Positions 32,494 through 57,416 of a stretch of 64,000 bases of DNA are shown here, in pieces. Both the position numbers and the translations under genes were made by a program. Each line of letters starts with the position of its first letter. Position 1 is the stretch's first letter. Origin of the DNA: Nemertoderma westbladi. Taxonomy: Eukaryota; Animalia; Xenacoelomorpha. The notes under the pieces are model-generated. The model was given only the letters and a program-made list of their open reading frames with translations. It had not been told where the DNA came from and did no database searches. The stretch is from the NCBI GenBank assembly GCA_032718475.1, contig JAUCBJ010005005.1, positions 1-64,000 on the forward strand, written 5' to 3'.

Positions 32494-33360
32494 TCACGAA
32501 TGGCGTTTACGGAGTTTCTTAAAACTTGCGATAGTCTTTTTCTCCTTGGGGCGAGCCACTTTACTAGGAGGGCTATAACTCCTGGGGGAAGGGTGCAATA
32601 CTATTACATCGGAAGGGTTAGGATTGCAGTCGGTGTATCCGCCGGTCGAGGTATCCGGTTGATCGATATCCATATCGGGGGATTGGGATTGAACAACCTT
32701 TAGGGCTCGTTTCAGGACAGCAGCTCTTACTGGTCCTTGATTGGTTGTCTGTACGACAGTGGTAGGTCGACCGTACGTAGTAAGGAATTTTCTCGGTTTA
32801 ATCGTTCTTTCTAATTCGTGCTCCCTTGCTTTGTATTCATATGGTCGCCTATGAACTTCTTGTAATTCCGGGTGTGCGTTTATGAATAACTCACCGTATT
32901 CTTTCTTCCTCGAACAATACATATAAATTCTAATGGACTATTCGAGTTTTAATAAATCCATCGAGGTTATATGGAGGTATTATTATGTCATTTTCTATTC
33001 TGGAGATGTTATAAGGTTTTCTAAATGAGTTTGCTTTAACTAATTGGTCAAAATGTTTTGGTAGTTGTTCAAGTTCAACAAGATCTAGGGGATTTATCAA
33101 TGGTAGAAACTTTAAACTATGTGTAGGATCTTCGGGTTTCACCATATAATATTGAGCTAAGTGGACATAGTAGGGGTGGTCTTTGATCCCGTAAAATGAG
33201 TTCTGTAAAGGTCTAGCGCGTATGTTAACCTCGTGTACCATACGACGGACAAGGTCTGCTCGATTGTCCAGAGGTTCACCGAGTATACCGTCGACACGAG
33301 CAGCTTCAATCTGCGCACGTTGTAACATAGGAGCGTCAGCGATAATATCTCGAGATCTAA
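32494..33360 (-). pseudogene. Element A accessory ORF remnant with the exonuclease/knuckle region deleted
   Basis: IEAARVDGIL...GFIKTRIVH is joined directly to EYGELFINAHPELQEV; both pieces are homologous to B. Confidence 0.8.
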
Positions 33361-33593
33361 CCGTTTAACGCCCATTGCACCTTAAATGGAACATGGCATT
33401 TGGAGAGACATGGGCGGCTGCTGCTTTGAAAAAAACGTGATTTTTTTTTGATATGAGTAAATTACATGTTTCCTCACATAATCACACCTTACTTGACCAA
33501 ATTTTATCAATTTCAAAACTGGAAAATGCCTGTTGAAAAGTGAAATTTTTGAAAAATTTAGGTGTCTTTTTGAATCTTAAAATTATGAGATGT

Positions 33594-33767
33594 AAGCAAG
33601 CAAGCAAGCAAACAGTCGGCCGAAGCCGGAGGCGACCCGAAGGCTCCTCTTTCGATAGCTGCTACCCGAGGGTAGGGGTGGGCGCTACTCCTATCCCAAG
33701 ATTTGCTCCCAGTTATTTAACTGGTACTCATTTTATCGACCCCAATGGATGAAAGGCTTAGTGGACC
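33594..33767 (-). mobile_element. 5'-truncated SINE (MetaSINE-like central domain) with (CTTG)n tail and 9-bp TSD ATGAGATGT
   Basis: Minus strand gcctttcatcc...ggtcgataaaatgagtaccag resembles the conserved Meta/Nin-type SINE core (from memory). atgagatgt at 33585-33593 and 33768-33776. Confidence 0.65.
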
Positions 33768-34289
33768 ATGAGATGTGGGATGGTCAACAATTTTCGAAAA
33801 TTAGCTTTCCTGTTGGCCTGAATGCTATTTTAATCATTTTTATCAGTATTAGCTTTCAAATTTTTATTTAACAATGTTTAATACAGCAGCAAAGTGAAAT
33901 GTTCCATTCAAGGTGCGTTGGGACTTCAAACTCATTTTTTTTTACATTTTTTTTAAAATTGCTTCACATAGTCCACATTCTACACCTGACTCGAATAAAT
34001 TGCATTTTCTTGACCTGATTTTGATTAACTTTGAAAAAATGTCTACAAGTTCTCCAAAAGACCAGTGGAAATGTGAAGAACATAACTCGATTGTCGAGTG
34101 TACTGTACCGTACATTGTATAGGTCTATACTGTAGGTACAGTCAAGGCCTAGATACGGCAGAACACAGTGTAGATTAGTATATTTTTTAGCTAGTTTGTA
34201 TTAGGCCTACTATTTTTTTTTTTTCAATGTAACAATATTTTTTAAGATTATATATATAAGAAAGGACAAACGAAGAGACAGCAGAAACA

Positions 34290-34815
34290 AGTGGGGTGAA
34301 CCCGACCCCGGAGCTGTGACACTCACGATCTTCCGCTCCCGGCCTCAGTAAGGGCATGTCCAGGTTTGCTGGGTGGTGGGGACAGGAAAAGCGGAGGTTG
34401 ATGCCCTCTCGGGTTCCTCTGCAGATGTGGAGAGGGAGGTTAGGGCAGGATCTAGGTGTGGGATGGCTGGTTGGTGGCCAAGGATGAGGGAAATAAGGGG
34501 TCCAGCCCTTCAAACGGAGTCTACATATGCAGCTGGTACATGGTCAGTTGCCTTGCGCAGGCCTAGACCCCCCATAGCGGGTGGAAAGCATGCATTGTTG
34601 TATGACCAGTGGGAGAGCGAACCTCCGACCAGGTCAGACAAGGAGTCACGCATGATGAGGTCAAATTCCAAGGAATACTGCACTACCAGAGATGGAGGGC
34701 AACAGCGCAGGGCGAAGACGACCTTGGGGCAAGCAGGAGCGGAGGAGGGCAGTTTCTATCTGCGAGTCCTGCAGGTCTGGCAGGCATGCAATTATGGCAC
34801 GGACCTTTATTGATC
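34290..34815 (-). pseudogene. Degraded CRE-like non-LTR retrotransposon RT fragment
   Basis: Minus-strand translation across frameshifts: QIETALLRSCL...EFDLIMRDSLSDLVG...PPAMGGLGLRKATDHVPAAYVDS. Confidence 0.6.
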
Positions 34816-35340
34816 CGTCCCATAACAGTATAAGGATCAGCATCAGTATATCGGAACAGCAGTACTTTGCACAATGTGCACAATGAACTTCTTGATACAA
34901 AAGTCGAGAACTTTATAGGCCTAGTATGGTATGGTATAGTATAGTATAGTATGTGTACTTTGCATGTGTAGGCCCACTCTAGAGGCAAGGCATTACGCAT
35001 TATATACTATACCTATAGGCCTATAAACGGAACTCGATAAACCGAAAGTAAATCTGACAGAACATCCCTGATAAACGGCTACCGGAACCTATCTTAACAA
35101 CAGTAACTTTTTTCCAGTTAGTTTATATCAGTAAGCCGATGACCTGCTTATCCATACTGTAGCTGCATAGCCTAACTAAGTGCAGTAGCTTCTGAGCAAT
35201 CAATGGGGTCCTATATAATTTATGTTATTTATTTATTTATGTTTTTTTGCAAAAGTGTAAAAGTAAAGTTACTTTATTGGGCCATTTTGAGATAGTTTCC
35301 AAAATATGAAACATTTTTTAAGTGGGCGTTAAATGGTTAA

Positions 35341-36021
35341 GTTGATATCAACCGGTTGAGGTTGTGCTGTCGCGAAGAGTATATTTCCGAACTGAGGAAC
35401 CATCGAAGGATGAATGATGGTTTTGGAGTAGAGATCAGTCATAAGTATCTGTGCTTCAGGTTGAGCTAAAGCTACTTCTTCTCTCTCGTCCATTTCGAAA
35501 TGTTTCTCCTCTAGCTGATTCTCCTCTGCTTGTCTTTTAAACCGTTCGCACAAGAACTCTTGTAACGAATATGTACATCCAAGTTCAACATCTCCCTCCA
35601 GATTTTCGATTTCTCGATCAAACTGAGGTAAAGCTAATTCTTTTACCGCTTGTACTTGTTGATGTAATCTATGTTTGTCTAAACAATCATAGGTTTCTTT
35701 TCTGATCTTTTGCCGAATTGCGTCCATTGCGTTCCATATGACACTTTCGTCCACTTCGGTTACAGATTGTATCGGAGTCAAACCGGGATGAATATACGGG
35801 TTGAATGGAGATATTAGATGCCCAGTGGGCATCTATCAGTGGACGTCCCAATCCGGCTTGGTAGGAAGGGCTAATATCCAAGGAGCCCACAACCGGAGTG
35901 CCACTGACCAATTGTTTGGATAGCACCAGATCTTTGAACAACGAGTACAACTCAGTAGGATCTGTCATACTGTCAGGGTCGAGAGTCTGCGGTCGCACCG
36001 GGGAATAAGGAGGTCTGACCA
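35341..36021 (-). pseudogene. Element A accessory ORF remnant (middle piece)
   Basis: VRPQTLDP...QVQAVKELALPQFDREI...AQPQPVDINL is near-identical in protein to B 20567-21230. Confidence 0.85.
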
Positions 36022-37914
36022 TATTGGAAGAGACAGCAACAATACCTGCAATATCCTACTGTAAAGTTTGTGAATCAAATCATAAATCCGACCTTCTCAC
36101 CAAAACAGTAAACTCTAAGTAAGCGAATATATTGCAGTATCGATCTCTTATAACCGGTGAGGCAGAAAACAGTCTACGAGCAGACAAACTTCGATGAAAC
36201 AAAATCCCGCGCAGCGAATCCTAAAATCAGGCTGACTCACTGACGGACTAAGGGGCTCGTATACTTTGCCGCGGTGTGATTTATATGGTTGGGCGAAAGA
36301 GACGCTAGCTAGGTACAGAGGCAGAGATTTGGAGATGTCTAACTAGCGGGCAAAGCACAGTACGGACAAAAGTTAATTTTATATATTTTGAGGTGTAAAT
36401 AATTTCTAACGCGCGTGTTAATTCTGAACGGTCAAAAGCAGTTTTGCTCCTTCACATATATAATTACTGGGTACGGTGTGCATTTTACGAATATTCTAAT
36501 TTTGTAACTCGTAGGTCCAATACTCACGAATGATAAGGTTCCTTCCCCTCTTGCGTATTTCCAGGACTCAAATTCAGGCATAAGGTTAATGCTACGCCCA
36601 GAATTCGGCAATTTTAGGTACCAGGTCCCTGATACTAAGAAGAGATGTGTTAGTTTACTACTGTAGGCGTACAGTTACTAATAGCTATCCTGGCTCCTAT
36701 CTAGAATTTTAGTCACCCAGGTAGTCCGGGTAACTTCCTATTAGGGCGTTGGCGGGGACACGGTAGATGTTAGTATCCCTAATAGCCTCAATTTATTTGC
36801 GCCTAGCTGTAAACTGCCCTACCGCCTGAACGGTACAATCCCAATTCAGGTGAAAACACAGCAACCCCTCTAGCCTACAAGTTCTAATGCAATGGACACC
36901 GTTGTACTACAAATAGTCGCACACGCACCTGCACTTAGCAAGAGTTAGGCGTACAGTTTGCTGCACCCTACCAATTTGTATGCTTCGTACCAGTGTGCCT
37001 ACGTCCTATCTGCGTACTAGTATCTGCCTGCTCTTTCCCTCTCCCCCCGTAGGAATGTGAAGGTCTACTGTGGGTTTTCCTGAATCAAGACAGTACAGTC
37101 CCTAAGATGTAATTTTAGGCTCACAGCGTGTCACTACTTCTACCTTTTGATCTTTTGGTCTTACACTTAGGTAGCAAGGCGTCGAACGCTGTCTAACCTT
37201 TCAGGCGATGGGTGAATAACTCAAGATGGTATTGCGGGTTGTCTCTTGTCTACATTCCCCCGATGTTCCCGTTCATTGCTGCGGCCCGATCTCTAGCTGG
37301 CCATCCTGTCCCTTAGCTGGGTTCACCGTAGTGAATCATGGTAAAACAGATAGAAAAAAGCAGATTAGCGATAATTCTGACTTTATTACAGAAGATATAA
37401 TTATAATACAATGTAATCTGAAATAAACTAAGCACGACAGAATTAAAGTGATGTGTGTGATAGATATTGAATGAGATAACTAATGAACAAATCGCACCTT
37501 TATATACTAAATTTGTGCCGCAATCAATCGAGAAAATTCTCGATTGTTCTATAGGTTCTAACAGGTTTTTAAAGATAGCTATTGGTCCAGCTAATATATA
37601 ACTTGCACGACATTGGTTACAATCAAATAACTACAGTCTCATTGGTACAGACAAATGCAATTAATTTGTAGCGGTTAATTTAAATGAGTTGAAATTCTGC
37701 ACAAAAATAATTCGCACTTACTAGGATTCGAACTCAATACCTACTACACATATAATTTCCAACGCTCTACCGACTGAGCTACTGAACCACTTGACCAATA
37801 GGCGTATAAATAGAAATAGCAATACAAATGAGGACTCAAAGCAATCTTTACAAAGTTAATTCGAATAAAATAAAATTTTGAAAATCCACGGCATTTAGGG
37901 AATATAATTCTATA
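36022..37914 (-). repeat. Element D 3' LTR (1893 bp)
   Basis: Direct repeat of 55499-57411 with about 4 substitutions and one 20-bp indel by eye. Confidence 0.95.
37716..37788 (-). ncRNA. tRNA-derived / Pol III promoter-like segment in D LTR U3 (second copy at 57213-57285)
   Basis: Minus strand TAGCTCAGTCGGTAGAGCG (A box / D arm) and GAGTTCGAATCC (B box / T arm), followed by a T5 run. No convincing acceptor or anticodon stem. Confidence 0.55.
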
Positions 37915-38648
37915 CCGCTCCATGAAAACAGGATATTATCGTGCATAAAATATACGGTTTTCACCAATAATCAATCAAACTATAGAGTACTTAGGGCGTA
38001 CTTACATATTTACAATTAAATTTCAAACAATACTTCCTTTCTACGTAATGATTCGATACAAAAATAATTACAAATTCAAACTTTACGTATTTAAGGCTTT
38101 ATTAAGTAAGTACAATATAAATCTAAATTAAATTCACCAATATAAATCTATTGCATCTCAATATTGCATAAATTCAAACAATTACAAATATATTGCATCT
38201 CAAATATTGCATAAATTCAAACAATTACAAATACAAATAAATGAAAACAATAAGAAAGGCTCGCGAGTCTTCCATCTACTATTACTTTCTGTTTCACTGT
38301 AAATACTGCCTATAAAATGTAAATTGCATAATATTCGGAACAATATAAATTGCATAAGTTCGGAATAATTACAAATATAAAATATAAATTCTTACAAATA
38401 TAAGTCTTACTAAATATAAGTATAAACTGCATAAGTTTAGAATAATATAAACTCCTTTGCATCTCAAATATGAAACATAAATCTTTCAAATATAAGTTCC
38501 TTCTAAATATAAACTTTCTAAATTTCATAAATTCGGAACAATACAAATTGCTTAAGTTCGGAATAAACACAAATATAAATATAAATTCAAATAAATCACA
38601 AATCATAAGAAAGGCTCACGAGTCTTCCGTCCACCCTTGCCCTCCCTT

Positions 38649-41456
38649 TTATCGCTTAGTGGATCGAGCCCTGCCGCGTCCTCGAAAACTGCGCACAGGT
38701 GACTTTGCTCGCGATATGGGACTCGTGGGGCGAGTCACTGGTTTCGTTTGGACGTTGAGAGACGGTGCGACCATTTCCTCGCAAATTCGTCTATTTGGCA
38801 TCCCAAAACTTCGACCGATTCCTCGTGACCGATCAGTTGTCACTACAGTTGGTAGAACGTCTGGGAACGCGCGAGAAGCGGACGACGCAGACCCAAGAGT
38901 AGCTTGCGCCCCCTGTTGATCAGCTGGTGTATGTCCCGATCCTCCTACTGGTTCTCTAGGAAGCGATACCGTATCCCGAGTAATTCGAATGGTCGGCTCA
39001 ACTCCCTTGCGTTCTTCTACATTAATAATTTTCTTTAATTGTTGGCCCACTTTCTGGACCCGTATGATCCTACCCTGTCCGTCCTCCCGAGGGTGACGTG
39101 CAGACGGCGCAACCGGAGTGGCTGGTATATTTGTCGCCTCTAGGACCTCTTCTTCCTCGAATACGCTCGCTCGTATACGTTTATGGTAAAACGCGGCTCG
39201 GTACGCCCATGCGACGGTTAACCAAGCTCCTTTGTTCCGCTTTTCAGTTCGGAAACGATCGAATTCACCATACGTAATGCGATTAACGACTTTCTGAAAA
39301 TTCCACGTGTTTTTGTTATCCGGGTGAATCTGTAGTAGATACTCGCGCACCACTCGGAATCCGCTGTCGTGGGGCAAAATATCGACAACCTCGATAAGTT
39401 CGTCATATTGGGGCATAGCGGAGATGTATCCTTCCGACATCATCGTTTGGGGATTTACCGCCCAAAATCCAAGATGCGCTCTCATCGGAAACCGTCTTCT
39501 TTGTGCTGATACATGTTCGTCGGCTAAATCTTCCCACTCATCAAATAACTTCCTCACGAGTTTTACAGATTCGTGTTCATAAGGTATATCTCTTAGTTGG
39601 CATTCAGATGCTCGATGTCCTTTTATATTGCAGTAAGTACATTGAGCCATAAATCTCCAGCAAGTATAAAAGGTATGAGACCCTTGATCCCCACACCATC
39701 CACAGATTAGCTGAGTCGTAGTAATGTGCTTTCCACTGCACTTTGTCATATGATGTCCAGCGACGCCACATTTACTACACATCGTATTGGCAGGGTACCA
39801 CACTCGTTCGTATATAAGATCTCCAATCGGTCGAGCGCTTCCTCCCACACTATAATCGTAATCATCTGGGTCTATGGGTTGGTAGGTTTCTGAAGGTTGT
39901 ATACAAACTATAGCATCTGTTGCTTCAAGTTGTCGAATCTCCGTCTGAGATTTCTTCGGGAGGTTCCTTTCTATCTCAAGAAGTTCCTCTAAAGGATCAT
40001 CGGCGATCGTAGTAGTTACTTCGAAATCATCACCAAGGTGACCGATAGGCGCGCGCGTCTGCCGTGATTCTTCCGTAATCTCCACGATACGTTCTCCTTC
40101 ATAGGGTAACAATGTAAACATAGATGGTCTTTCGATAAGAGATCCCGCACAGCGAAGATACACGTCTCGAAATATACTAAATCCTGCTCGAGTAAAGGCA
40201 TTACACTGAGCGTCGGAGTTGTAGAAGGGTTCAAGGAATCGTCTAAACACGTCGGTACGAATTCTCCCTTCCATGTAGAACGTATGATCTTCTCCGAGAC
40301 AAAGTGGATGTCTTTTGAGAGTCCGAGACACAATGTCGGCGATTAGGCAAACATTCACTGACAACTCTATTGCTAAATAATATTGTAGGACCGCTCTTGG
40401 AGGTGACGTAATAGCCCAATACACGCATCCTCTCCATTTAAGCTGTGATTCAAACTCACTCATATCTGGAGTATCACCTTCTCCATAAGTTTCAATATAC
40501 TTGTTTCTCTTATTTTCCTTATAATCCCAATTGAATAACAGGTAGGAAATGTATCCAGTTCCAGTCTTCTGAGTATTATACTCACGAAAATATCCCTGTT
40601 CTATAGACCACAAAATAAGAGGTCGAGTGTCGACGTAAGGTGTCGGTAGTCGGTCATCGCTGTCCGTCATGCCGGCGAAGTCGCTAATTAAATCCTCCCT
40701 TACTCCTGATCCAATCTTTACAACAGTTTTATCTAAAATCATGTTTCTTACCATCTTCGGTAGCATTCTAGCGTCAATATTACAAGCTTGGTCCATCTTC
40801 TTTACTATGTCGGTGATAAGATGGTGTCGCTTTGTATTCGCTGGAGGTATCGGCATTCGTTTGTCGCTCCTCTGTCTACTGAAAACGTGCAGGACTCCGT
40901 CCGCCGCTCTAATTTGTATAGTCTTAGAAGTCAAACTCTTCTGATGACTGCCGCCCTCGTTATCGTAAAACATGTAACCGTTTTCCTGAAACGATCTAAA
41001 TGTCCTATTCCATTCATCCAACAATTCTTCCGAAGGTTGCCAAATCTTCTCTATGTCCTTATCATCTTCGAAACGAATAACCTTACCTCGCCAATCTGCG
41101 GCAATATCTGTATCCGACTCGAAGGTTCCGGTTCCAATCCATAAACGAATCGTCTTGGTTAAATATCCTTTCAAATTACTCGGAGCTATATCGGCACCAG
41201 CTCTATCCAGTTCCTTGAAGTCTTGGATATGAGGTGGGACGTTGTACACGACCTTTTGAGTAATATGTCTACGTAAATCATATATCTTGCTCATATCGCT
41301 GAAAACAACTGCAGGAAGAAACTCCAAGTTCGAAATGATTTCTGGATGATCCACGATGGGTATTTCGTACGTCGTATCCTGTCGGACTGGTATACTAATA
41401 GGGAAATTGAGTGTCGTACTCAATGGTTTCGTAGTTGATGTACTATACGGTTGCAT
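38649..41456 (-). CDS. Element D accessory ORF (935 aa): DEDD-type (RNase D/WRN/EXD-like) 3'-5' exonuclease plus three CCHC zinc knuckles and a basic tail
   Basis: FYDNEG (ExoI DxE), TIQI, LPKMVRNMILDKTVVKIGSGVREDL (ExoII), YVDT, YYLAIE (ExoIII-like). Knuckles CSKCGVAGHHMTKC, CGWCGDQGSHTFYTC, CTYCNIKGHRASEC. Confidence 0.78.
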   Translation of the reverse strand: MQPYSTSTTKPLSTTLNFPISIPVRQDTTYEIPIVDHPEIISNLEFLPAVVFSDMSKIYDLRRHITQKVVYNVPPHIQDFKELDRAGADIAPSNLKGYLTKTIRLWIGTGTFESDTDIAADWRGKVIRFEDDKDIEKIWQPSEELLDEWNRTFRSFQENGYMFYDNEGGSHQKSLTSKTIQIRAADGVLHVFSRQRSDKRMPIPPANTKRHHLITDIVKKMDQACNIDARMLPKMVRNMILDKTVVKIGSGVREDLISDFAGMTDSDDRLPTPYVDTRPLILWSIEQGYFREYNTQKTGTGYISYLLFNWDYKENKRNKYIETYGEGDTPDMSEFESQLKWRGCVYWAITSPPRAVLQYYLAIELSVNVCLIADIVSRTLKRHPLCLGEDHTFYMEGRIRTDVFRRFLEPFYNSDAQCNAFTRAGFSIFRDVYLRCAGSLIERPSMFTLLPYEGERIVEITEESRQTRAPIGHLGDDFEVTTTIADDPLEELLEIERNLPKKSQTEIRQLEATDAIVCIQPSETYQPIDPDDYDYSVGGSARPIGDLIYERVWYPANTMCSKCGVAGHHMTKCSGKHITTTQLICGWCGDQGSHTFYTCWRFMAQCTYCNIKGHRASECQLRDIPYEHESVKLVRKLFDEWEDLADEHVSAQRRRFPMRAHLGFWAVNPQTMMSEGYISAMPQYDELIEVVDILPHDSGFRVVREYLLQIHPDNKNTWNFQKVVNRITYGEFDRFRTEKRNKGAWLTVAWAYRAAFYHKRIRASVFEEEEVLEATNIPATPVAPSARHPREDGQGRIIRVQKVGQQLKKIINVEERKGVEPTIRITRDTVSLPREPVGGSGHTPADQQGAQATLGSASSASRAFPDVLPTVVTTDRSRGIGRSFGMPNRRICEEMVAPSLNVQTKPVTRPTSPISRAKSPVRSFRGRGRARSTKR

Positions 41457-42374
41457 TTATCTTGTCCTCTCCGGGGATGCAATCTGTAGTCTCTGAATAA
41501 CGTTTTGAGCAAAGTTTATGCTCTCGAAAACTTCCGGTGTCATCTCCTTAGCTGGAGTTTGATCGTGTGACGTCCAATGGTAAGGTAGGCTCGCGAGTCT
41601 TCCGCCCCATTCTTCCATCTCACCTTTCTCGAAAGCCTTGTAGGCTCTGTATAGGCTAAGAGCTTCTTTCTTTTCGCGGGTTGACTGATTTGCCTCGTCC
41701 AGCGTAAGTTCAAATACATCGGGTTCAACAACCTTAGGTGGGTAAATGACAGTTTCTCCCGCCTTTGGTCCGGTCATAGCAAATGAATGATATGGATTCG
41801 ATAAAGGATACCCTCCTTCCTGGTAGCGTAGTTGTTGATGGTTCGAACACCTCGCCAATATCGGTTCGGGATTTTCCTTATTCAAATGCATCGGAATCGC
41901 ATTTCGTTGTTCGCGCATACAAGAACCGCATTGATAATAAAGTTTATAAACTGAAAATGCTTCCTTGGTTTCTCTATCGTCCCCTCGAGTTCGTCTGTAA
42001 AGATGCATTCCATCAAATTCATCTCGTACCGCGGGCATAGGTTCGTGCGCCTTCAGGTATTGCATGGTATGATACAAACGACTAATTTCAGTATCGGGGT
42101 CTTCGCTAATGTCTCCCGTATCACACAAAGCGTCGTACGGATAAAGTTCGTTGAAGGTTTGGCGCAAACTTTCGATTCTTTCGTTTAATGCGTTTTGCCT
42201 TCTCTTTAATACGTTCGAGTCATATTTAGTTCTCGCGAGTTTCGCTGTACTTTCCGATAATTCCTTTATACCGAATATAGTATAGTCCTTGGCTCCAAAT
42301 CTTTCGCATGGCGCTGCTGCCTCCTCTTGGATATCATATCCCCATCTCGGCTCTCCTTGTATCCCTTTCTCCAT
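41457..42374 (-). CDS. Element D accessory ORF N-terminal part (305 aa), in frame with 38649-41456 across a single TAA
   Basis: EISRLYHTMQYL...YYQCGSC...RCSNH is homologous to B ELKRLYFTMMYL...YYCDEC...RCAKH. Confidence 0.7.
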   Translation of the reverse strand: MEKGIQGEPRWGYDIQEEAAAPCERFGAKDYTIFGIKELSESTAKLARTKYDSNVLKRRQNALNERIESLRQTFNELYPYDALCDTGDISEDPDTEISRLYHTMQYLKAHEPMPAVRDEFDGMHLYRRTRGDDRETKEAFSVYKLYYQCGSCMREQRNAIPMHLNKENPEPILARCSNHQQLRYQEGGYPLSNPYHSFAMTGPKAGETVIYPPKVVEPDVFELTLDEANQSTREKKEALSLYRAYKAFEKGEMEEWGGRLASLPYHWTSHDQTPAKEMTPEVFESINFAQNVIQRLQIASPERTR

Positions 42375-43033
42375 AATTAGGGGTGTAGTTACATAATCAT
42401 TACTACTAGAGGGAATACAACAGAGTTTGTAGTTAGTTGTGAGGAGACGTGAGAGTTTCGTCTGCCCTTTGGGCTCGACAACGCTCTAACCTCCTACCCA
42501 TAGCCTAAGATCTAGGGTTTCTTTAATGACACGCTGCTTCTTATCTAAAATTTTTGCCGAAATAAAAACGAATTTGGGCTAAACTGGCCGTGAGTCTAAA
42601 ATACTCACCTTTTGATCCCAAACTATTATCAGAAAATAAGCAATCAAGAATTAGTAATAAATATAGGGGAGTCTATTTTGACGTAACTTATTGAAACAAG
42701 ACCGTGTAAAATTTAATTAAAATTTTTAAGAAAGGCTCGCAAGTCTTCCTCTCTTGTTTCTCTAATTTTAAGTTCCACCCGACTGTACCCTGAAATCTAT
42801 TCACTGGAGAAAATTTTAAAATTTTTTCAAATCCAAATGGATTGTCTAAAATTTCGAAAATGTCTCAATATTGTGAGTTCCAAGTAGAATTCCATTTCTT
42901 ATACCTACAAATCCCGCTCCTATGTGACACATAAGGGTACTACCCTCAATGTTCACATATAAAGACAATGGAATTCTACCGCTGTCCTTACTACGGTGTA
43001 CAGGTACGTGGAAATCTATTTGTAAACTCCTAA

Positions 43034-46000
43034 TTATTTACTAGTATTAGGTGGAGATTTGTAGTCTCCAGATTCGTTACGAGTCTCTTCAAGAAGTACG
43101 AGACGTTGAGTCGGTCTGTCTACTGTACGACCGTCAATTGTCCGTACCGTCACAGTTCTTGTCACTCCATCCATAGATGGATGTGTGGCTAAAATTACAC
43201 CTGTTATCCAGAAGCGTCTTTTTAGATTCACTTCTGCCAACAGCACGTGATCTCCCGGCTTTAATGCGCGGGTGTTATTATACCAAGTTGTTCTGGCAGA
43301 AATAGAGGGCAAATAATGGTTTTGCCATATTTCCCAGAATTTGTTAGCTAGTAGTTGCGTGATTTTCCACGCTTTTCTACCGTAGCTGTCGCTTTCTATT
43401 GGAATAGAAATAGGTGTCAAAGTTGTCGGTGCCTGCATAAGCAGGTGTGCCGGTGTCAAAGCGAACTGAGATTGTTTGTCATCGGGTACTAATACTATTG
43501 GTCTAGTATTTAGTATTGCCTCGATTTCAACAAACAGTGTTGTCAGTTGGTCGTCTGTCAATATGTGGTTTACTGGAATGACTTTTGCCATTGCCGTCTT
43601 TATAGATCTAATCAATCTCTCCCAGACTCCGCCTCTCCAAGGACTATCTGGAGGATTGAACTTCCAAACAATCTTGTGAGGTTGCAGTTCGTTCGAGATT
43701 TGATCATGATCTAATTTCTTAAAGGCTCTAGCAATCTCATTTCGAGCACCAACAAAGTTTGTCCCTTGGTCTGAGTACAAGCATTTTACTAGTCCGCGTC
43801 TAGCGATAAATCGCCGCAAGGCTAGTATAAACGCGTTGGTGGAAAGATCCATCACACGTTCAATGTGAACTGCCCTACTGGACATACATGTGAAAATCAG
43901 TCCCCAGCGTTTTACTAGTATACGTCCACGTTTCGTATGTATGGGACCAAAGCAATCAATTCCAGTCTCTGTAAAAGGTGGTCTGAATGCTTGAAGTCGT
44001 GCTTGTGGTAGTTCACTCATTTCTTGGGTACCTATTCTAGAATGTACCTTTTTACAAATAATACACGTACGTGTCACTGAACTTAACGCTTTACTGGGTC
44101 TAATTAATACAAATCTTGTACGTAAGTAGGAAAGACAGTGGTGTCTTCCAGCGTGTTTTAGATGTAAATGTGCATCCAGTATCATTGCACGTTGTAGTTC
44201 GTGATGTTGCGGTATTATTATTGGGTACCTAAAGTTTGTGTTAAAGTCAATGTTTTGAAGCCGAGATTTATGACAAATTAAGTCATTGTAAATAATCGGA
44301 CTCCAACTCAGTATTGGTGACGACTTGATTGGTTGACCTTGATTTATGGACGTGAATTCGCGCGCGAAATATCGCAGTTGGTAATGGCGAATTAATTTAA
44401 TCTCACACCTCTCAATCTCAGTCAATGTAAGTCGACGTGTAAAGTCACGTTTGCCTTTAACGTATTGTACAAAACGTACAATCCACGCTAATTTTCGGCA
44501 AGCGCTTGTCCAAGAGTCTGTTAAGTTTACAATCCGGTCGACGTGAGTATTTGTGACGTCATCAGGTAAGTCAATGGAGATTTTGGAAGGTTTTGAATTA
44601 CTAGAAGGGCCCACGGGTCCGCCGGTAAGTATTCCCTTGTTGACTGTTGATCCTTCCGGGTCTACAAGTAATTTGTCCTTCTTCGTCTTCTTACCTTGAT
44701 TGTCGGTACTTTGTAAGTCGATCGTTAATGGTGGTTTGAACTCTATGGGGTCAGCAGGTTTCGGTAAACTTAATTTGCTGCCAACATTAATCCCAGGTTT
44801 CACCATAGGTTGCAAGTTCGGTATGTCTCTTGAGCGCAAAGTAACACCTGTATTTACATTAGCGTAGGTACTACCCACATCTGTAATACATGAGGTTTCA
44901 CCGTGCTTATGGTTGCTCAAGTGTGTCAAAATTGGTAGTTTGTCAATACAAGGCCGCTCCAATAGGGAAACTGCGGCTTCACTATTTGTCAGTACGTTAC
45001 TAGTGTCTAGTCGACTGTCTAGTAATGTGTCTGGCGATACGTCTGGTAACGTATCTGGTTGTTTGTCAATAGAAGGCCGCTCCAACAGAGAAACTGCGGC
45101 TTTACTGTTTGTCAATGCGTTACTAATGTCTGGTAGAATGTCTGATTGACCGTCTAGTAACGTGTCTGGTTGACCGTCTGGTAACGTGTCTGGTTGACCG
45201 TCTGGCGATATGTCTGGTGTAGAAAGGCTCGCAAGTCTTCCTCTCTTGACCTTTGAAGTTATCGCTTTCCATTTCGCCTTCGGTTTTTTCTTGAGTTTTG
45301 CCGTCGTCGTCTTTTTCTTTGCCTTCCCCTTTTTTGGTTTCTTGATTTCGGCGTCCTTAGGGATGGTGTTAGACTTGTTGTCGTATAACGGTGGCCAATC
45401 TTGCGTCGATTTCTGCAAGAATTGGGGTCCGTGTTGCCAAAATTCTTTGTTCTCCGGTTTACAGAATTCCTCAGACATCATTCCTCGCGACGCAATATCA
45501 GCTGGGTTTTGTGGTCCGGGACAATGTCGCCAATCCTCTTTTATTGAACGGTCTAGAATTTCTGCGCGACGGTTAGCTACGAATGTCTTGAATTCAAGTG
45601 TGTCGTTGTTTATGTAAAATAAAACCAACGTCGCGTCAGTCCAATAAAATATCTGTAAACTTGACTGTAGTTCTGTCTGTATAAGGTTTACGATGGTGGT
45701 TGATAGTGTTGCGGCTTGTAGCTCAGCTCGTGGTGTCGTCATATACTTAGTAGGCATTGTTTTTGCCTTAGAAGTAATGAGCGAAACATCGAATGCTTCT
45801 GAGTCTACTTGTCTGCGCAAGTACGCTGCCACACCAAAACCGTTGTCACTGGCGTCAGAAAAACAGTGTAGTTCCAAGTTGTCAGGAAATGTACTTTGTA
45901 ATGGAAAGTAAACTCTGGGTATGGAATACTCCTCTAGCGAAGATAATTCCGCCTCCCAGGTCTTCCATAAGTCCACTTGGTCTGATGAGATCGGCTCGTC

Positions 46001-49000
46001 CCATGTTAGTCCATCCTTCCAAATACTGCGCATATAAATGCGGGCTTGCAGTATTACTGGACTGATGAATCCTAACGGATCGAACAATCGGCTCAATTTT
46101 GACAAGCATGATCTCTTTGTCAGTGTGTTCTCTTGACTGTCCAGTCTCACCTTCACTCGGAAGTTGTCCGTGTTTGGGTCCCAAAAGAGCCCCAACACCT
46201 TGGTCGTCGGTAGTGGTTCGAACTCTAGGTCTATGTCACCACCTCCATGCTCAGTCGTTCCGAATGAGTCTACTAATTCGGCACTGTTTGAGGCGAATTT
46301 GGTGAGGTTGAAACCTCCGCCCGCCAAGCAGTCCCGTAATTGATGTGCTACTGTTGTAGCACGTTCTACTGTGTCGCAACTCTGTAATCCGTCGTCGACG
46401 TAAAAGTCACGTTCCACAATCCTAATTATCTCTGGGTCATATAGGTGTTTCTGATCTCTAGCGGCTTGTTTTAGGGCGTACATCGTGCAGTTTGGGCTGT
46501 CCCTGGCACCGAAAACGCGAACTTGCATTTGGTAAGTCGTCGGTGGTAGACTTAAGTCTCCTTCCGGGTACCAGAGGAACCGCAAACTGTCTCTGTCTCG
46601 CTCTAACGCTCTCACTTGGTGAAACATCGCTTCAACGTCGCAAGTAAAAGCTACTTGACGCTGACGGAAGCGCATAATCACCCCCATAAGATAATTATTC
46701 ATGTTTGGTCCATCCATCAACTCGCTATTGAGGGACATTCCCTCAAACAGAGCCGCACAGTCGTTGACTACGCGTACTTTGTCTGGTTTGTCGGGGTGTC
46801 TCACGTAGTGATGTGGCAAGTAATACGTCTGGTCAGTCACTCGCTCCGGGTTAGTCATCCGGATAGCGTATCCCTTGGTCAAATACGTCTCCATCTGAGT
46901 GTTGTACTGCAGATGGGCTTTCTCGTCCTTTAATAGACGTTGTCGGATTGAGTGTAGACGTCTTAACGCTAGTGGGTAGTTGTTTATAAGTTTAGGACTT
47001 TGGCTACGCCATAACATCCCCACCTCGTAATGTCCGTCCTCCGTCTGTCGGATAGTATCTTCCATGATCTTCAGAGATTGTTTCTCCTGTTCCGACATAC
47101 AAAGTTCGTAGCTACCAGGTTCAGCTGTATCTTGTTCTAACCACCTGATAGTCTTCTCCGTTAATTCCTTGTCCAGTGCAGCTTGTTCCATTTGATGATT
47201 TCTCAACGCGTCATCATCGATCTCGACGGGCATTGTTGATGTCGTTGGGGTAGGTAGACTCGCAAGCCTTCCGGCGTTATCATCTGTCGTCGATGGAATC
47301 TCTAGCTGACTCGTCTTCTCCCCAAGTTCTAAACTCCGCTGGTGGATTAGCTGCTCCTTGTGACTTATCATACTAGTCACACGTCTGTCACGTTTTGTCG
47401 ACTGTAGTGTAGTATGGTTCACGTCGTGTGAGAAGGAATGAATTGAATTTGTAGTTAATAAACTACATGTACTTTGTACATCGTCTTCCTCGTCACTTAC
47501 GTCTAGTGTGCGCACAGGCGCTCGAGTATACCACCCTATCGGCGTTCTGCAGCCGTATGCGTTTCCCGCTACGACTGCCGATGGTCTGGTTTCCCACCCC
47601 TGATGTAGGTTGAATTGGTCTGTCCCGATCAGCATGGCTACCGATCGATAATTGACAGGACATTCAGGTACACCAAGGTGTCTGAAATACTTACGGTCCT
47701 CCAAGGATTGTTCTGGGACCGGACCTAGTAGGTTACTAAAGTCTTTTGTGGCCGCAAAGGTCAAATCCTTGAAGGGTAACAAAGACCTCTCCCTCTCGCT
47801 GTGTTGCGATTTCGGAAGAAGAGAGTCTAAGTTTAACTTGACTCGTGTCACTGGTATTGCACGCTGTCCGTGCATACTACTTACGGTATAACTGACGCGC
47901 TTACCTTGTCTGAGATCCGTCACGACGTCAGCTATCTTTTCATCCACGTAGCTGTGAGATGAGGCTGAATCTAGAATCGCGTAGATTCTCTTACTCCCCT
48001 TTGTGCCAGTAATCTTAATTGGAATTACACTGAATCCCTTCAGTTGGTCAGTAGTCAGAAGCGCGATCGATGGCTGTTCATCTCCATCCGAATATACGTC
48101 GTCGTCTTCTGACTCTTCGTCCGACGATCCGGATTGTTCTGAGAAGCAATCCTCAATATGGGTCACGAAGGTCGGAGTCGTTTTCGATTCTCGTTTTCTG
48201 TAGGCCGCATCACATCTCGCTGCTGCTTCCGGGTGTTCCCTGGCGAAGCGTTTTGTCGGCGTGTGGCTGTCCGTGTGGAGCAGACCGTCGTGGTTGCGTC
48301 CACAGGATGGACAAGTGTCGGTATTTGGGCAATCTTTACGGACGTGTCCGTGTCGCGTACACCGCCAACAAGAGTCCAATGGCCGTATTTGCAGCCGTCG
48401 TTCTTCCGAGTTCAACTCGCGAAACTGTCGACAACCTCGCAACTTGTGACCGATATACCGCTTGCCTAAATGCTCGCAGTATTGGCAGCCGCTGAAGTCG
48501 GTACTGAGTTGTTGTCTCGTCTGTTTTGTCCCAATGGGCGCAGATACCCTACTACCGTCCGAGAATTGTCGTGATTCCGTCGGTGTGGCGTAAGTGGCCG
48601 TCTTGGTGGATGTTGTCTGAGGTTTTTGTCGGTTGGAGGATGGCAAGGTGATCCCTTCTGCTACGATGTGCTGGTCAGTGTAGTTGGATCGAGTTTCTAC
48701 AACTGCTTCCCTGGATATCAAAAGATACACATCCTCTAATTTTAAGAATCCACCCCGCTCTTCTCGCTGGTATTCGATCTTTCTCCACTCCCGACGAAGT
48801 CGATGGTGGAGTCGTCCTATGATTTTTAATAGGACTGTAGGGGTATTCCCGTAGTCAAGTTGTCCAATGGATCTTAAAGTAGTGATAGCGTTCTTTATCT
48901 CGTCGGCCAGTTTTAATAAGTCGACGGGTTTAGTGATAGCCCCTCCCTTACAGAGTTCCTCTATTACTGACCTGGCCATACTGACTGTACCTCCGTATAT

Positions 49001-50905
49001 CGAAGTTAAACGATCGTACGCTAGTTCGAAGGCGTCCGGTACACCAACGAAGGTCTCTGCCAAACGTTTAGGTTCTCCTGACAACGTTTGAAGCAGGTAA
49101 TTAAACTTCTCCCGTGATGTAAAGGCGCACACGGCGATCTGAGATTCGATATAGTCTACGAATGTGTGCCAGTGTTTTGAACTACCGGAAAACTTCGGTG
49201 GTTGTTGTACCGGCAATCCTTGCCTGGCTGCGAATTTCGCTATCTCCTCGGCAACGTTCAGAGTTTCGCGTCCTTGGTTGGTAACCTGGTTGGTGTTCTC
49301 CCTTCTTGGCGCTTTTCCCTGATACGATGTATGTTTTGAAGGTACCGGTCTTTGTGGTTCCTTCGGGTGTCTATTGTGTTCGAATTCGGAATTTCTCGAA
49401 CTGTCGGTGTAACCTTCCTCCAGACGCTCCTCGATCTGAGCCAACTTGTTAACAACTGGTCGCAGGATGTCGGCGAACTGTTGTGCACTGATTGCGTCCG
49501 TTGGTTGTAACGCCTTCTGTGTTGGTGTATTCTGTGGAGGATTGTCTACAAAGGAGTTATCTGAACGCTCGCGTTTATATTCATCGGCCGCCCCTGTTCT
49601 AAATACCTCGCGTTTCGGGTAATCCGATTCGCTCGAAGTACTACTATCATCTGGATATGGTGGTCGACGTGCTCGCGTCCGTTGCGTCGTACGAATTCTA
49701 ACATTTCGCTTTGGAACATCGTCCACTGATCTCCGTTGTTCGGTAGGCTCACAAGTCTTCCTCGAAGTCGTAGATTGCGATGTAAACTGATTGAACGGTC
49801 GCGTATCCACTGTTCTCCATTGTTCGGTAGGCTCACAAGTCTTCCTCGAAGTCGTAGATTGCGATGTAAACTGATTGAACGGTCGCGTATCCACTGTTCT
49901 CCGTTGTTCGGTAGGCTCACAAGTCTTCCTCGAAGTCGTAGATTGCGATGTAAATTGAACCAGTGGTCGAGTAACAGCGTTTGAATCCAAAGGCCTTGTT
50001 GGCCTAAACGTCATTGGGTAAGCATAGTGTGTAACAGGTTTTGGCGTCAGAGGTGGACTCACCTGTTTTGTCGTCAGTAGTGCAGGTCCGACTAATAAAC
50101 TACTACGATCTGTAATCGGCGGGTTACTTACCTTTGGAATAGGCGACGACGTTGCTCTTGGCGGTGTAAACTTGTCCGGAATAATAAACCTGTGTTCCGT
50201 CGCACCATGGATAGGAGAAATATCACTACTACCCGCAATCGAAACAGGTTTCTTAGTTGTAACTGGTGCGAACATAGGGGTTACTTGAGGGAATCTTTGA
50301 CATAAGTCCTTTACTAATTGTCGTTCCCGTCCAGGTGCTCCTATCGAACCTTCCTTCATTCGTTCCTGGATTTGGCGATGCCTTACCTCTATCTGGTCCA
50401 AATCATGTCCGTCACGAGATCTCATCGATCGATCACGGGCTAGAAGATCCAGATTTTCCTTGGTTTCGGCTAATTCTCTCGCCCTTTTCTCAAGTTCGAA
50501 ACGAAGTTTAACTTCCTTTTCTCGTTGTTCCGTTTGTTGTTGTTGCGCCTCGAACTCTGCTTGTCGTATCGCTTGTTGGGCTTTTATTTGCCGTGTCTTC
50601 ATCTCGACTCTGGCTTCTGAAACTAACCTTTTTCTTTCTAACTCTGCCGCTGCCGTTTGTCGCTCTAACTCGGCTGCCGCCGTTTGTCGCTCTAACTCGG
50701 CCGCTGCCGCTGCCGCTGCCGTTTGTCGCTCTAACTCGGCTGTTGCCGTTCGTTGCGCTAACTCGGCCGCTGCCGCTTGTTGGGCAATGTCCAACTCTAA
50801 CCTTTCCATTTCGGCCGCTTCGAGTTCGGCTTGTTCCTGCAGATGAGAGATTCTCGCTACATTCGCAACACGTATTTTCTCTTCCTCTACCGCTGTTTGT
50901 ATCAT
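43034..50905 (-). CDS. Element D Gag-Pol polyprotein, BEL/Pao family (2623 aa open; true N-terminus lies upstream and is disrupted)
   Basis: Gag PPKFSGS, knuckle CWRCTRHGHVRKDC, protease AILDSAS, RT YYLPHH...FYVDD, Pao RNase H LHCFSDAS...NPADIASRG, integrase HHCC and GIDCF...YSDQG...VWERL, C-terminal RPTQRLVLL. Confidence 0.95.
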   Translation of the reverse strand: MIQTAVEEEKIRVANVARISHLQEQAELEAAEMERLELDIAQQAAAAELAQRTATAELERQTAAAAAAAELERQTAAAELERQTAAAELERKRLVSEARVEMKTRQIKAQQAIRQAEFEAQQQQTEQREKEVKLRFELEKRARELAETKENLDLLARDRSMRSRDGHDLDQIEVRHRQIQERMKEGSIGAPGRERQLVKDLCQRFPQVTPMFAPVTTKKPVSIAGSSDISPIHGATEHRFIIPDKFTPPRATSSPIPKVSNPPITDRSSLLVGPALLTTKQVSPPLTPKPVTHYAYPMTFRPTRPLDSNAVTRPLVQFTSQSTTSRKTCEPTEQRRTVDTRPFNQFTSQSTTSRKTCEPTEQWRTVDTRPFNQFTSQSTTSRKTCEPTEQRRSVDDVPKRNVRIRTTQRTRARRPPYPDDSSTSSESDYPKREVFRTGAADEYKRERSDNSFVDNPPQNTPTQKALQPTDAISAQQFADILRPVVNKLAQIEERLEEGYTDSSRNSEFEHNRHPKEPQRPVPSKHTSYQGKAPRRENTNQVTNQGRETLNVAEEIAKFAARQGLPVQQPPKFSGSSKHWHTFVDYIESQIAVCAFTSREKFNYLLQTLSGEPKRLAETFVGVPDAFELAYDRLTSIYGGTVSMARSVIEELCKGGAITKPVDLLKLADEIKNAITTLRSIGQLDYGNTPTVLLKIIGRLHHRLRREWRKIEYQREERGGFLKLEDVYLLISREAVVETRSNYTDQHIVAEGITLPSSNRQKPQTTSTKTATYATPTESRQFSDGSRVSAPIGTKQTRQQLSTDFSGCQYCEHLGKRYIGHKLRGCRQFRELNSEERRLQIRPLDSCWRCTRHGHVRKDCPNTDTCPSCGRNHDGLLHTDSHTPTKRFAREHPEAAARCDAAYRKRESKTTPTFVTHIEDCFSEQSGSSDEESEDDDVYSDGDEQPSIALLTTDQLKGFSVIPIKITGTKGSKRIYAILDSASSHSYVDEKIADVVTDLRQGKRVSYTVSSMHGQRAIPVTRVKLNLDSLLPKSQHSERERSLLPFKDLTFAATKDFSNLLGPVPEQSLEDRKYFRHLGVPECPVNYRSVAMLIGTDQFNLHQGWETRPSAVVAGNAYGCRTPIGWYTRAPVRTLDVSDEEDDVQSTCSLLTTNSIHSFSHDVNHTTLQSTKRDRRVTSMISHKEQLIHQRSLELGEKTSQLEIPSTTDDNAGRLASLPTPTTSTMPVEIDDDALRNHQMEQAALDKELTEKTIRWLEQDTAEPGSYELCMSEQEKQSLKIMEDTIRQTEDGHYEVGMLWRSQSPKLINNYPLALRRLHSIRQRLLKDEKAHLQYNTQMETYLTKGYAIRMTNPERVTDQTYYLPHHYVRHPDKPDKVRVVNDCAALFEGMSLNSELMDGPNMNNYLMGVIMRFRQRQVAFTCDVEAMFHQVRALERDRDSLRFLWYPEGDLSLPPTTYQMQVRVFGARDSPNCTMYALKQAARDQKHLYDPEIIRIVERDFYVDDGLQSCDTVERATTVAHQLRDCLAGGGFNLTKFASNSAELVDSFGTTEHGGGDIDLEFEPLPTTKVLGLFWDPNTDNFRVKVRLDSQENTLTKRSCLSKLSRLFDPLGFISPVILQARIYMRSIWKDGLTWDEPISSDQVDLWKTWEAELSSLEEYSIPRVYFPLQSTFPDNLELHCFSDASDNGFGVAAYLRRQVDSEAFDVSLITSKAKTMPTKYMTTPRAELQAATLSTTIVNLIQTELQSSLQIFYWTDATLVLFYINNDTLEFKTFVANRRAEILDRSIKEDWRHCPGPQNPADIASRGMMSEEFCKPENKEFWQHGPQFLQKSTQDWPPLYDNKSNTIPKDAEIKKPKKGKAKKKTTTAKLKKKPKAKWKAITSKVKRGRLASLSTPDISPDGQPDTLPDGQPDTLLDGQSDILPDISNALTNSKAAVSLLERPSIDKQPDTLPDVSPDTLLDSRLDTSNVLTNSEAAVSLLERPCIDKLPILTHLSNHKHGETSCITDVGSTYANVNTGVTLRSRDIPNLQPMVKPGINVGSKLSLPKPADPIEFKPPLTIDLQSTDNQGKKTKKDKLLVDPEGSTVNKGILTGGPVGPSSNSKPSKISIDLPDDVTNTHVDRIVNLTDSWTSACRKLAWIVRFVQYVKGKRDFTRRLTLTEIERCEIKLIRHYQLRYFAREFTSINQGQPIKSSPILSWSPIIYNDLICHKSRLQNIDFNTNFRYPIIIPQHHELQRAMILDAHLHLKHAGRHHCLSYLRTRFVLIRPSKALSSVTRTCIICKKVHSRIGTQEMSELPQARLQAFRPPFTETGIDCFGPIHTKRGRILVKRWGLIFTCMSSRAVHIERVMDLSTNAFILALRRFIARRGLVKCLYSDQGTNFVGARNEIARAFKKLDHDQISNELQPHKIVWKFNPPDSPWRGGVWERLIRSIKTAMAKVIPVNHILTDDQLTTLFVEIEAILNTRPIVLVPDDKQSQFALTPAHLLMQAPTTLTPISIPIESDSYGRKAWKITQLLANKFWEIWQNHYLPSISARTTWYNNTRALKPGDHVLLAEVNLKRRFWITGVILATHPSMDGVTRTVTVRTIDGRTVDRPTQRLVLLEETRNESGDYKSPPNTSK

Positions 50906-50930
50906 TCACTTGTGTCCTTCTGGGCTCCTC

Positions 50931-54689: not shown

Positions 54690-55487
54690 TTCGGTAGTTG
54701 TAAGTCAAGTAAAGTGAGTGTCAAAGTATCGAGTTTACCGTATTTATATCTAAACGGTACTAATTACAGTCATATAAAATTAGCCTACCGGCCGATTTTA
54801 TAGCAGATGGATAAAATTAGCCTAAACGGCCAATTTTACAGCAAATAAATGTCACGGAATAAGTATATAATAAAATTAGCCTAGCGGCCAATTTTATAAC
54901 AAATAAATCGGATAACGATATGCGTTATCAAAAGGTAAATTAAATACAATAATACGGACTAATTCAGCAATGAACAAAGAAATCATACGGAATGCATAAA
55001 TACTTGAGACAGTGGAACCCACAATAATTTTAACTAATACGGTAATGCCTAACTTATTTATGCAACTTTTCAAACTCACCCACTCCAATAATTCTCCAGA
55101 AAAACAGATTCCCAGATACAAACCGAACGTGAACCTTTCCGTTTCCAGCGTTGCGGACGAAACGCGATTTTCCCAACCAAAGTTGTTGAGTTATCTATCT
55201 CCCAAACTTGCTAAACACGGTCTTGCTCCCGTTACAGTCTAGAAATGAGTTCTGAATCCTGAAAAAACAAAAGAGTTAGGTTTTACTTTACGAAAATTTT
55301 GTACCGGTACAATATGGTATTTAAACCCTTTTAAACACCGGTATTCAATTCCAAAAATATTTTACGCGCGGTTCAAATCAAATTTTATTTCAAAAAATTA
55401 GCACTTAGCTAATCAAATATAAATTTTTACCTCAAAATACAAAATTTTCAAATAACTTTAGTCCTACCGAACCGTAGTTCAGTAAAA

Positions 55488-55498
55488 CACATTCCTAC
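55488..55498 (-). promoter_or_regulatory. Element D primer-binding position (GTAGGAATGTG): non-tRNA, complementary to its own LTR at 56526-56536
   Basis: cacattcctac (55488-55498) is the exact reverse complement of gtaggaatgtg (56526-56536; also 37049-37059) and abuts the LTR. Confidence 0.75.
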
Positions 55499-57411: not shown

Positions 57412-57416
57412 GACCA

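Follow-up and report, generated by a model that had tools for sequence, protein, structure and literature searches.

Exonucleases of the DEDDy class have been described in mobile elements before. The closest known examples come from bdelloid rotifers, where the Juno and Vesta retrotransposons and the Athena/Terminon Penelope-like elements carry, downstream of pol, a third open reading frame (ORF3) that was once taken for env and is described as encoding a DEDDy enzyme (Rodriguez, Kenefick & Arkhipova, 2017; PMC5408684). Dada DNA transposases are likewise described as embedding a DEDDy 3'-5' exonuclease, which was proposed to process the 3' ends arising from transposition (Kojima & Jurka, 2013; PMC3706591). 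Among cellular enzymes, the RNase D of Trypanosoma brucei (TbRND; PDB 7C42) consists of an exonuclease domain, a linker, and four CCHC fingers that grip RNA positions 5-9 from the 3' end, a combination called "very unusual" in the authors' account (PMC7797062). Here we report an ORF3 of a comparable kind in element D, a BEL/Pao long terminal repeat (LTR) retrotransposon of the nemertodermatid Nemertoderma westbladi. It lies in a stretch of 64,000 nt (assembly GCA_032718475.1, contig JAUCBJ010005005.1, positions 1-64,000, forward strand; referred to as the window), which is AT-rich and holds LTR retrotransposons nested in one another, with ORF3 sequence also present in two other elements, A and B. 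We consider it likely that ORF3 is a BEL/Pao gene kept by selection, that it encodes a predicted DEDDy (RNase D/WRN/EXD2-like) 3'-5' exonuclease with three CCHC zinc knuckles, and that the product acts as a metal-dependent trimmer of single-stranded nucleic acid 3' ends.

The enzyme class and the position in place of env are already known; what is new is the BEL/Pao lineage, the TbRND-like architecture within a 1241-residue protein, the purifying selection, and the retention of the gene in a derivative that lacks pol. As far as the published description of the rotifer proteins goes, those of Juno, Vesta, and Athena resemble the ORF3 of D in being RNase D-like DEDDy proteins in which one acidic residue is exchanged (the rotifer proteins have DEED in place of DEDD, that of D has D-E-D-E), common to unrelated lineages, and in both cases the activity is a predicted one. 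The hosts of these genes differ, since Juno and Vesta are Ty3/gypsy-like (among the Juno, Vesta, TelKA, and Mag clades) and Athena is Penelope-like, whereas D and B belong to BEL/Pao. In the same account, homology of the rotifer ORF3 to known exonucleases by HHpred is termed "strong", no array of CCHC knuckles is described, and no significant departure from neutrality is reported within the genome (PMC5408684); by contrast, the ORF3 of D has no match to a Pfam exonuclease family, D and B each have three knuckles, and the ratio of nonsynonymous to synonymous divergence (dN/dS) between the ORF3 sequences of A and B is 0.09. A preliminary description of this DNA, made from the sequence alone, had mentioned precedents in both rotifer and nematode LTR elements. 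Those of rotifers were traced to the Ty3/gypsy-like Juno and Vesta and to Athena (PMC5408684), and for nematodes no paper was found in the literature searched. In that literature, a DEDDy ORF3 is described solely for Ty3/gypsy-like and Penelope-like elements of bdelloid rotifers. We likewise found no literature report of a DEDDy gene in a BEL/Pao element, or of a knuckle-bearing form of such a gene, in a search whose scope did not extend to subscription papers, Repbase, Dfam, or GyDB.

With TbRND, ORF3 shares the order of an exonuclease domain followed by tandem CCHC fingers, and our family profile matches the finger region of 7c42 (E 2.5e-4) as well as AIR2, with the exonuclease domains left unaligned. 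TbRND is described as a cellular mitochondrial enzyme with a chain of 351 residues and four fingers, whereas the 1241 residues of ORF3 include three knuckles, a sizeable N-terminal domain with its own Cys/His motif, one more conserved region towards the C-terminus, and finally a basic tail. The cellular DEDDy proteins (EXD2, WRN, RNase D, and Rrp6; PF01612) provide the best matches to ORF3, by structure in EXD2 and by profile in WRN, EXD2, and RNase D, with the ExoI, ExoII, and ExoIII motifs collinear at low confidence. Compared with them, ORF3 is retrotransposon-encoded, is not matched by PF01612, has inserts of ~30 and ~35 residues between the motifs, and carries Glu in place of the last Asp; no HRDC domain was detected in it. 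Dada resembles D in being a mobile element that carries a DEDDy exonuclease, and differs, in its published outline, in being a DNA transposon with the domain inside the transposase and with all four DEDD residues canonical.

The assignment of D to BEL/Pao follows from the Pfam content of its gag-pol frame, which matches Peptidase_A17 (E 1.9e-42), DUF1759, DUF5641, and Integrase_H2C2. D shows the features that define the group (Belpaoviridae), namely LTRs with a target-site duplication, a gag with DUF1759, a pol with peptidase A17, reverse transcriptase, and RNase H, and an integrase with DUF5641. Its two LTRs (36022-37914 and 55499-57411) are 98.7% identical across 1913 nt, and the 5-base duplication TGGTC stands at both flanks. 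The sequences of element A that flank D (35337-36020 and 57412-58015) form one contiguous stretch in element B (20568-21832), which indicates that D inserted into a copy of A. A further LTR element, C (12875-20070), is nested in element B (9385-31541; LTR identity 99.5%) and splits it. Almost all of pol is gone from B, in which a D gag-pol query matches only gag and a 50-residue remnant of pol (24043-23906); its long frame is gag (Pfam DUF1759), so that B keeps gag and ORF3. Given how alike the LTRs of B are, this pol-less element of gag plus ORF3 was mobile recently.

In D, ORF3 starts 660 nt downstream of the gag-pol frame. The frame of ~1240 codons proposed in the preliminary description has the expected length, although in this copy it is not fully open, because a TAA falls at codon 306. 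We compared copies of the element by placing contigs on the window, taken from three runs of DNA and from a fourth run whose kind is uncertain. At codon 306, essentially all covering contigs of all four runs differ from the window by one letter and lack the stop (depth 23023/23069 over 16 contigs in run X1, 17531/17531 over 7 contigs in X3, and one contig each in X4 and X5); the ORF of the family is therefore continuous, and the stop is a lesion private to this copy. Among D-family copies in the DNA runs we also observed two deletions that remove ~2.0-2.1 kb of ORF3 (40090 to 42215 and 40202 to 42235) and one that takes out the entire ORF3 region (38190 to 42727).

The homologous frame in B was recovered by a tblastn search of the window with the ORF3 of D, which matched at 21726-21319, 12831-12337, and 12296-11064 with 27-32% identity (E 1e-50 for the two C-terminal matches and 3e-9 for the other). 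It had been described as a disabled frame of ~1400 codons; the homology and the disablement hold, and its length comes to ~1250. The lesions are the insertion of C, the stop at 20998-21000, a frameshift between 12337 and 12296, and an early stop at 11172-11174. As had been noted, A retains remnants of ORF3, here found to belong to the N-terminal part only; the exonuclease and knuckle part is missing from A, the absent stretch corresponding to B 11039-12875 plus 20070-20109. Between D and B, ORF3 has diverged about as far as gag, which is 27% identical over 165 residues and 36% over 61, and on this comparison of sequences ORF3 was probably already present in the common ancestor of the two elements and is old in the lineage.

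ORF3 is a real gene under purifying selection. Over 572 aligned codons of the N-terminal part, A and B differ with dN 0.087 and dS ~1.0, giving a dN/dS of 0.09. Within the D family, we used the best-supported 40 of 126 differences among copies, of which 36 fall in the ORF and 35 remain after the stop is dropped; these 35 comprise 18 synonymous and 17 nonsynonymous changes, whereas the same base changes placed at random would be expected to include 9.8 synonymous ones (binomial p 0.003). These two results, together with the restriction of the stop to one copy, establish the gene, and the neutral evolution that the preliminary description had named as a possible outcome of a dN/dS comparison was not seen. 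The strong selection was measured on the N-terminal part of ORF3, ~440 residues that include the CxxC...RCxxH motif, which is indeed shared by D, B, and A as the preliminary description had it. This N-terminal domain has no Pfam match, and its profile gave 0 matches in the PDB.

Relatives beyond the window are few. A phmmer search with the ORF3 of D against 1.84 billion representative proteins returned 3 matches. Two are metagenome singletons, P0003 (558 residues, E 2.3e-6) and P0004 (715 residues, E 3.1e-4), and both match the C-terminal two thirds of ORF3, including the nuclease motifs, the knuckles, and the further conserved region, and lack the N-terminal part. The third, P0002, matches the knuckles alone. 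Word-indexed searches of 5.8 billion proteins with the ORF3 of D, P0003, or the family alignment found nothing besides P0003, and scans of metagenome contigs with P0003 and the exonuclease domain of D yielded no relative.

Four members thus carry the nuclease domain (D, B, P0003, and P0004), and at 22-39% identity to D all four keep D-x-E, D, and Y-x3-[E/D]. The ExoI motif reads YDNEG in D, YDYEG in B, and VDTES and FDVED in P0003 and P0004, and lies on a predicted strand. At ExoII, D has KIGSGVREDL and B has KIGSAVYGDL, and the Asp of K[IVA]GS....D is invariant in the four. The ExoIII-like Yxxx[E/D] is YLAIE in D and YTIFE in B, with Glu also in P0004 and Asp in P0003. A YGEGD-type motif near residue 629 was considered as an alternative ExoIII and was dropped, as its spacing varies, by eye, in B and P0004. 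The knuckle array begins ~165 residues C-terminal of the exonuclease domain, knuckles 1 and 3 having the form C-x2-C-x4-H-x4-C and knuckle 2 an x5 spacing, with three knuckles in both D and B. The DxE, KIGSxxxxDL, YxxxE, and CCHC signatures listed for B and D in the preliminary description can thus all be found in the sequence. The C-terminal part of ORF3 has no Pfam match.

Sequence profiles place the domain near the same group of enzymes. A profile of the exonuclease part, run against 177,635 distinct PDB sequences, had the mouse WRN exonuclease as its best match (E 0.049) and EXD2 as the next (E 0.29), the aligned part being the ExoII block in each case; phmmer with D against the PDB sequences gave noise only. 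By hhalign, the profile matched Escherichia coli RNase D (P 0.0014) with D561 on the catalytic D85, and in a permissive extension D471/E473, D561, Y666, and E670 were collinear with D28/E30, D85, Y151, and D155 of RNase D, at low confidence outside ExoII. RNase D scored 31.7, and none of the 29 neighbouring E. coli proteins used as a control exceeded 19.8. Among the 18,950 models of NCBIfam, the RNase D models TIGR01388 (E 0.0019) and PRK10829 (E 0.011) were the top two for the B fragment, TIGR01388 again matching on the ExoII block, and the domain of D matched DnaQ epsilon (E 0.053) across the ExoI stretch.

Structure prediction, which the preliminary description had suggested as a check, points the same way from a low-confidence model. 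An AlphaFold model of the exonuclease domain from a five-row alignment has a mean predicted local distance difference test (pLDDT) value of 47, with 50-75 for residues 1-150, which span ExoI to ExoII and follow the order strand-strand-strand-helix-strand-helix expected of the DnaQ fold. A Foldseek search with the model placed EXD2 chains at all of ranks 1-11 (E 0.012-0.062, probability up to 0.99), followed mostly by DEDD nucleases, among them Orn, NrnC, RNase T, Egalitarian, CAF1/Pop2, and Nibbler. In an exhaustive VIA structure search of 48,161 chains, independent of Foldseek, EXD2 (6k17_A) again came first (Z 9.2, root-mean-square deviation 3.5 Å over 97 residues) and was the sole chain at Z≥8; the next row stood at 6.6, with the RNA-exosome chain 6fsz_KK at rank 4 (Z 6.3) and diDNase at rank 21. 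A second VIA run gave 8 EXD2 entries (Z 9.0-9.7), and after these the apicoplast Pol exonuclease, NrnC, Egalitarian, Klenow, Nibbler, WRN, Pop2, PAN2, and Exo I. Support from the predicted model for an alpha/beta fold of the RNase H-like (DnaQ) type is thus confined to the half from ExoI to ExoII; a model of residues 690-1075, which cover the knuckles and the C-terminal region, was unusable (mean pLDDT 33). In the ESM Atlas, which we treat as a source of leads only, 10 of the 10 structure rows listed for P0003's own model fall in PF01612 clusters, two of them with TM scores of 0.70-0.73 (by row length), the nearest feature cluster of P0003 is a Euglenozoan one combining PF01612 and zf-CCHC (score 0.87), and the D domain itself gave only a lead at 0.83.

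Profiles, hhalign, and predicted structure, each below threshold by itself, together uphold the DEDDy assignment of the preliminary description, and we take the DEDDy fold to be the clear best reading of all lines combined, and a very probable one. Several observations weigh against it or against a functional gene. The Pfam family that had been proposed as a check (DNA_pol_A_exo1, PF01612) failed to match any of D, P0003, P0004, and the B fragment, although E values up to 1 or 10 were admitted. Each of the sequence similarities to DEDDy proteins is under usual significance and falls mainly on the ExoII block; the placement of ExoI and ExoIII on RNase D comes from a forced, low-confidence hhalign extension; hhalign against E. 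coli Pol I gave no match to the exonuclease domain; and the profile had no match in a six-frame search of the E. coli chromosome. The quality of the AlphaFold model is poor: its ExoIII half is below 50 pLDDT or unmodelled, and the five residues are not seen to come together in it. Three of the four members have Glu as the last acidic residue, and long inserts separate the motifs. As to the gene, the copy in the window has an in-frame stop, some genomic copies of the D family carry deletions within ORF3, and the variant-site test uses less than a third of the differences found.

The main rival to an active exonuclease is a domain that derives from a DEDD nuclease but is catalytically dead, and that would serve with the knuckles as an RNA-binding or adaptor protein in ribonucleoprotein assembly or RNA localisation, in the manner of EXD1, Maelstrom, or Egalitarian. 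Dead DEDD derivatives usually lose several catalytic positions, whereas here the five positions keep their metal-binding and catalytic chemistry in all four members despite the low identity between them, and we therefore regard this rival as unlikely. It draws its strength from the ExoIII substitution of Glu for Asp, from the long inserts and a divergence beyond the reach of Pfam, and from the presence of Egalitarian among the structural matches; inactive DEDD derivatives are also described as acting in PIWI-interacting RNA (piRNA) biology (PMC5408684).

A second possibility is that the motifs and weak matches arose by chance or convergence in an unrelated fold, as might be argued from the lack of any match at a curated threshold, the low confidence of the model, and the fact that middling VIA Z values are common. 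Such coincidence is hard to reconcile with the convergence on one superfamily of the PDB profile, hhalign with its control, NCBIfam with two members, Foldseek, VIA, and, with another member, the ESM Atlas, or with the position of EXD2, 2.6 Z units above the next of all the chains searched, and we judge it very improbable.

That ORF3 could instead be a recently transduced fragment of a host gene, or a decaying passenger with no role in the element, is suggested by the stop in this copy, the broken state of A and B, and the deletion variants in the genome. The low dN/dS between A and B at a dS of ~1, the synonymous excess among D copies, the occurrence of ORF3 in elements whose gag proteins are only 27-36% identical, and the private nature of the stop all contradict this, and leave such an origin barely credible. 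Least credible of all is an envelope-like gene, for which the position downstream of pol and nothing else speaks, and which we reject because ORF3 has no env features and has nuclease motifs and knuckles instead: in agreement with the preliminary description, a hydropathy scan of ORF3 found no signal peptide, a hydrophilic N-terminus, and no clear membrane segment, and the sole hydrophobic peak (top 19-residue Kyte-Doolittle window 1.62) lies on the ExoIII helix.

The ORF3 protein may be made from a subgenomic, possibly spliced, mRNA, as the sequence upstream of its ATG would allow. The polypyrimidine-AG acceptor that the preliminary description had placed ~33 nt upstream is present, at 32 nt. 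Run X5, which is RNA by guess, bears another organism label, and thinly covers D including the LTRs, has no joint at this putative acceptor; one of its contigs (42367-42659) reads straight through it, and the run is uninformative on expression or splicing. A donor-like GTGAGT occurs at ~42610, ~200 nt upstream of the putative acceptor, and a four-codon mini-ORF (ATG at 42400) directly precedes the ATG of ORF3.

If ORF3 is an active enzyme, the domain would work as a two-metal 3'-5' exonuclease, for which all five positions are chemically plausible, the Glu for the last Asp being a conservative change. By analogy with TbRND, the knuckles may grip single strands of RNA or DNA a few nucleotides short of the 3' end, which they would pass on to the active site. 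The most likely substrate would be the 3' ends of the element's own RNA or cDNA, as Rodriguez et al. proposed for the rotifer ORF3s (PMC5408684). Host uridylation has been reported to restrict LINE-1 (PMC6191937), and one speculative possibility is that ORF3 strips the untemplated 3' tails that mark retroelement RNA for decay. A bolder proposal, which we hold to be rather improbable, is that ORF3 represents an ancient retroelement-specific module of RNase D-like domain and knuckles, needed in cis like gag, and serving in counter-defence by stripping host-added 3' tails or degrading host small RNAs, thereby antagonising RNA-tailing or piRNA-type restriction. The need in cis is a speculative reading of the retention of ORF3 together with gag in the pol-less, recently mobile B.

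Extra genes of LTR retrotransposons are usually labelled env or ignored. ORF3 would bring such a nuclease to BEL/Pao, the third of the great LTR lineages, represented here by a family of very high copy number, with a TbRND-like knuckle array and strong purifying selection; that a predicted DEDDy gene in BEL/Pao is under selection and is kept in pol-less B suggests that retroelements capture nucleases repeatedly and to functional effect. It raises the question of whether the 3' ends edited are those of element RNA or cDNA or those of host silencing RNAs. The exonuclease and knuckle part is open in this copy, within codons 307-1241, and provides a concrete protein for assay. The coordinates of ORF3 and of the elements that carry it are collected in Table 1.

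Table 1. Positions in the window of ORF3, its motifs and copies, and the element that carries it (aa, amino acids)
Feature	Coordinates	Strand	Basis or remark
Element D, 21.4-kb BEL/Pao LTR retrotransposon	36022..57411	-	sits within accessory ORF of element A
D gag-pol frame, 2623 aa, open	50905..43034	-	Pfam
Pyrimidine tract ending in AG (42407-42406), putative splice acceptor	42406..42424	-	sequence; 32 nt upstream of ATG
D ORF3 (accessory gene), 1241 codons plus stop (38649-38651)	42374..38649	-	ATG at 42374
CxxC...(23)...RCxxH motif (C149, C152, C176, H179), N-terminal domain	41838..41930	-	conserved in D, B, and A
In-frame TAA, codon 306 of D ORF3	41457..41459	-	private to this copy
Predicted DEDDy-type exonuclease domain, aa ~455-700	40275..41012	-	profile, hhalign, NCBIfam, predicted structure
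ExoI, D471-N-E473	40956..40964	-	DxE in 4/4 members; weak DnaQ epsilon match here
ExoII, D561 in KIGSGVREDL	40692..40694	-	aligned to RNase D D85, WRN GIEGD block, EXD2 CSED block
ExoIII-like Y666-x3-E670	40365..40379	-	starts predicted long helix
Three CCHC zinc knuckles, aa 866-925	39600..39779	-	sequence; weak Pfam zf-CCHC match
Conserved C-terminal region past knuckles (F/WExxADE..., GFxA)	39150..39557	-	D, B, P0003, P0004
Basic Ser/Arg/Gly-rich tail, aa 1080-1241	38652..39137	-	composition; not kept in relatives
B ORF3, N-terminal part	20071..22119	-	one in-frame stop at 20998-21000
B ORF3, exonuclease, knuckle, and C-terminal part	11175..12874	-	split from N-terminal part by nested element C
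A ORF3 remnant, N-terminal	57412..58149	-	interrupted by D
A ORF3, further remnants (35337-36020 and 32896-33358)	32896..36020	-	2-kb insertion between

Other features of element D lie outside ORF3. A span of 4.6 kb (50906-55498) separates the 5' LTR from the gag ATG and contains a 258-residue frame (54704-53928) with no Pfam match. In DNA run X3, the summed depth of segment 52244-54199 is 10-100x below that of the remaining D, and some D-family copies connect 50905 directly to 52107; the segment may be a rare insert or a captured segment of this copy. The N-terminus of gag-pol has an alanine-rich, coiled-coil-like repeat, with a unit of ~28 residues present three times at 49722-49958, and a long low-complexity insert with DGQPDTLP-type repeats lies between RNase H and the integrase.

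Element C has LTRs of 534 bp that are 98.5% alike, two plus-strand frames (13409-14851 and 14826-17264) with no Pfam match, a strong GC skew (0.3-0.37), and 120-bp tandem repeats at 15212-15574. In A, the 2-kb insertion relative to B occupies 33358-35337, no gag or pol was detected in 58150-64000, and a 30-bp unit is repeated in tandem in at least 14 copies at 58586-59185, upstream of the ORF3 remnant. At the other end of the window, positions 1-4670 include an inverted duplication (1-613 against 1383-780, 91% alike), a fragment of an RVT_1 reverse transcriptase on the plus strand (2168-3271), and a plus-strand frame (3876-4667) with a SHIPPO sperm-tail PG-rich repeat, possibly an exon of a host gene.

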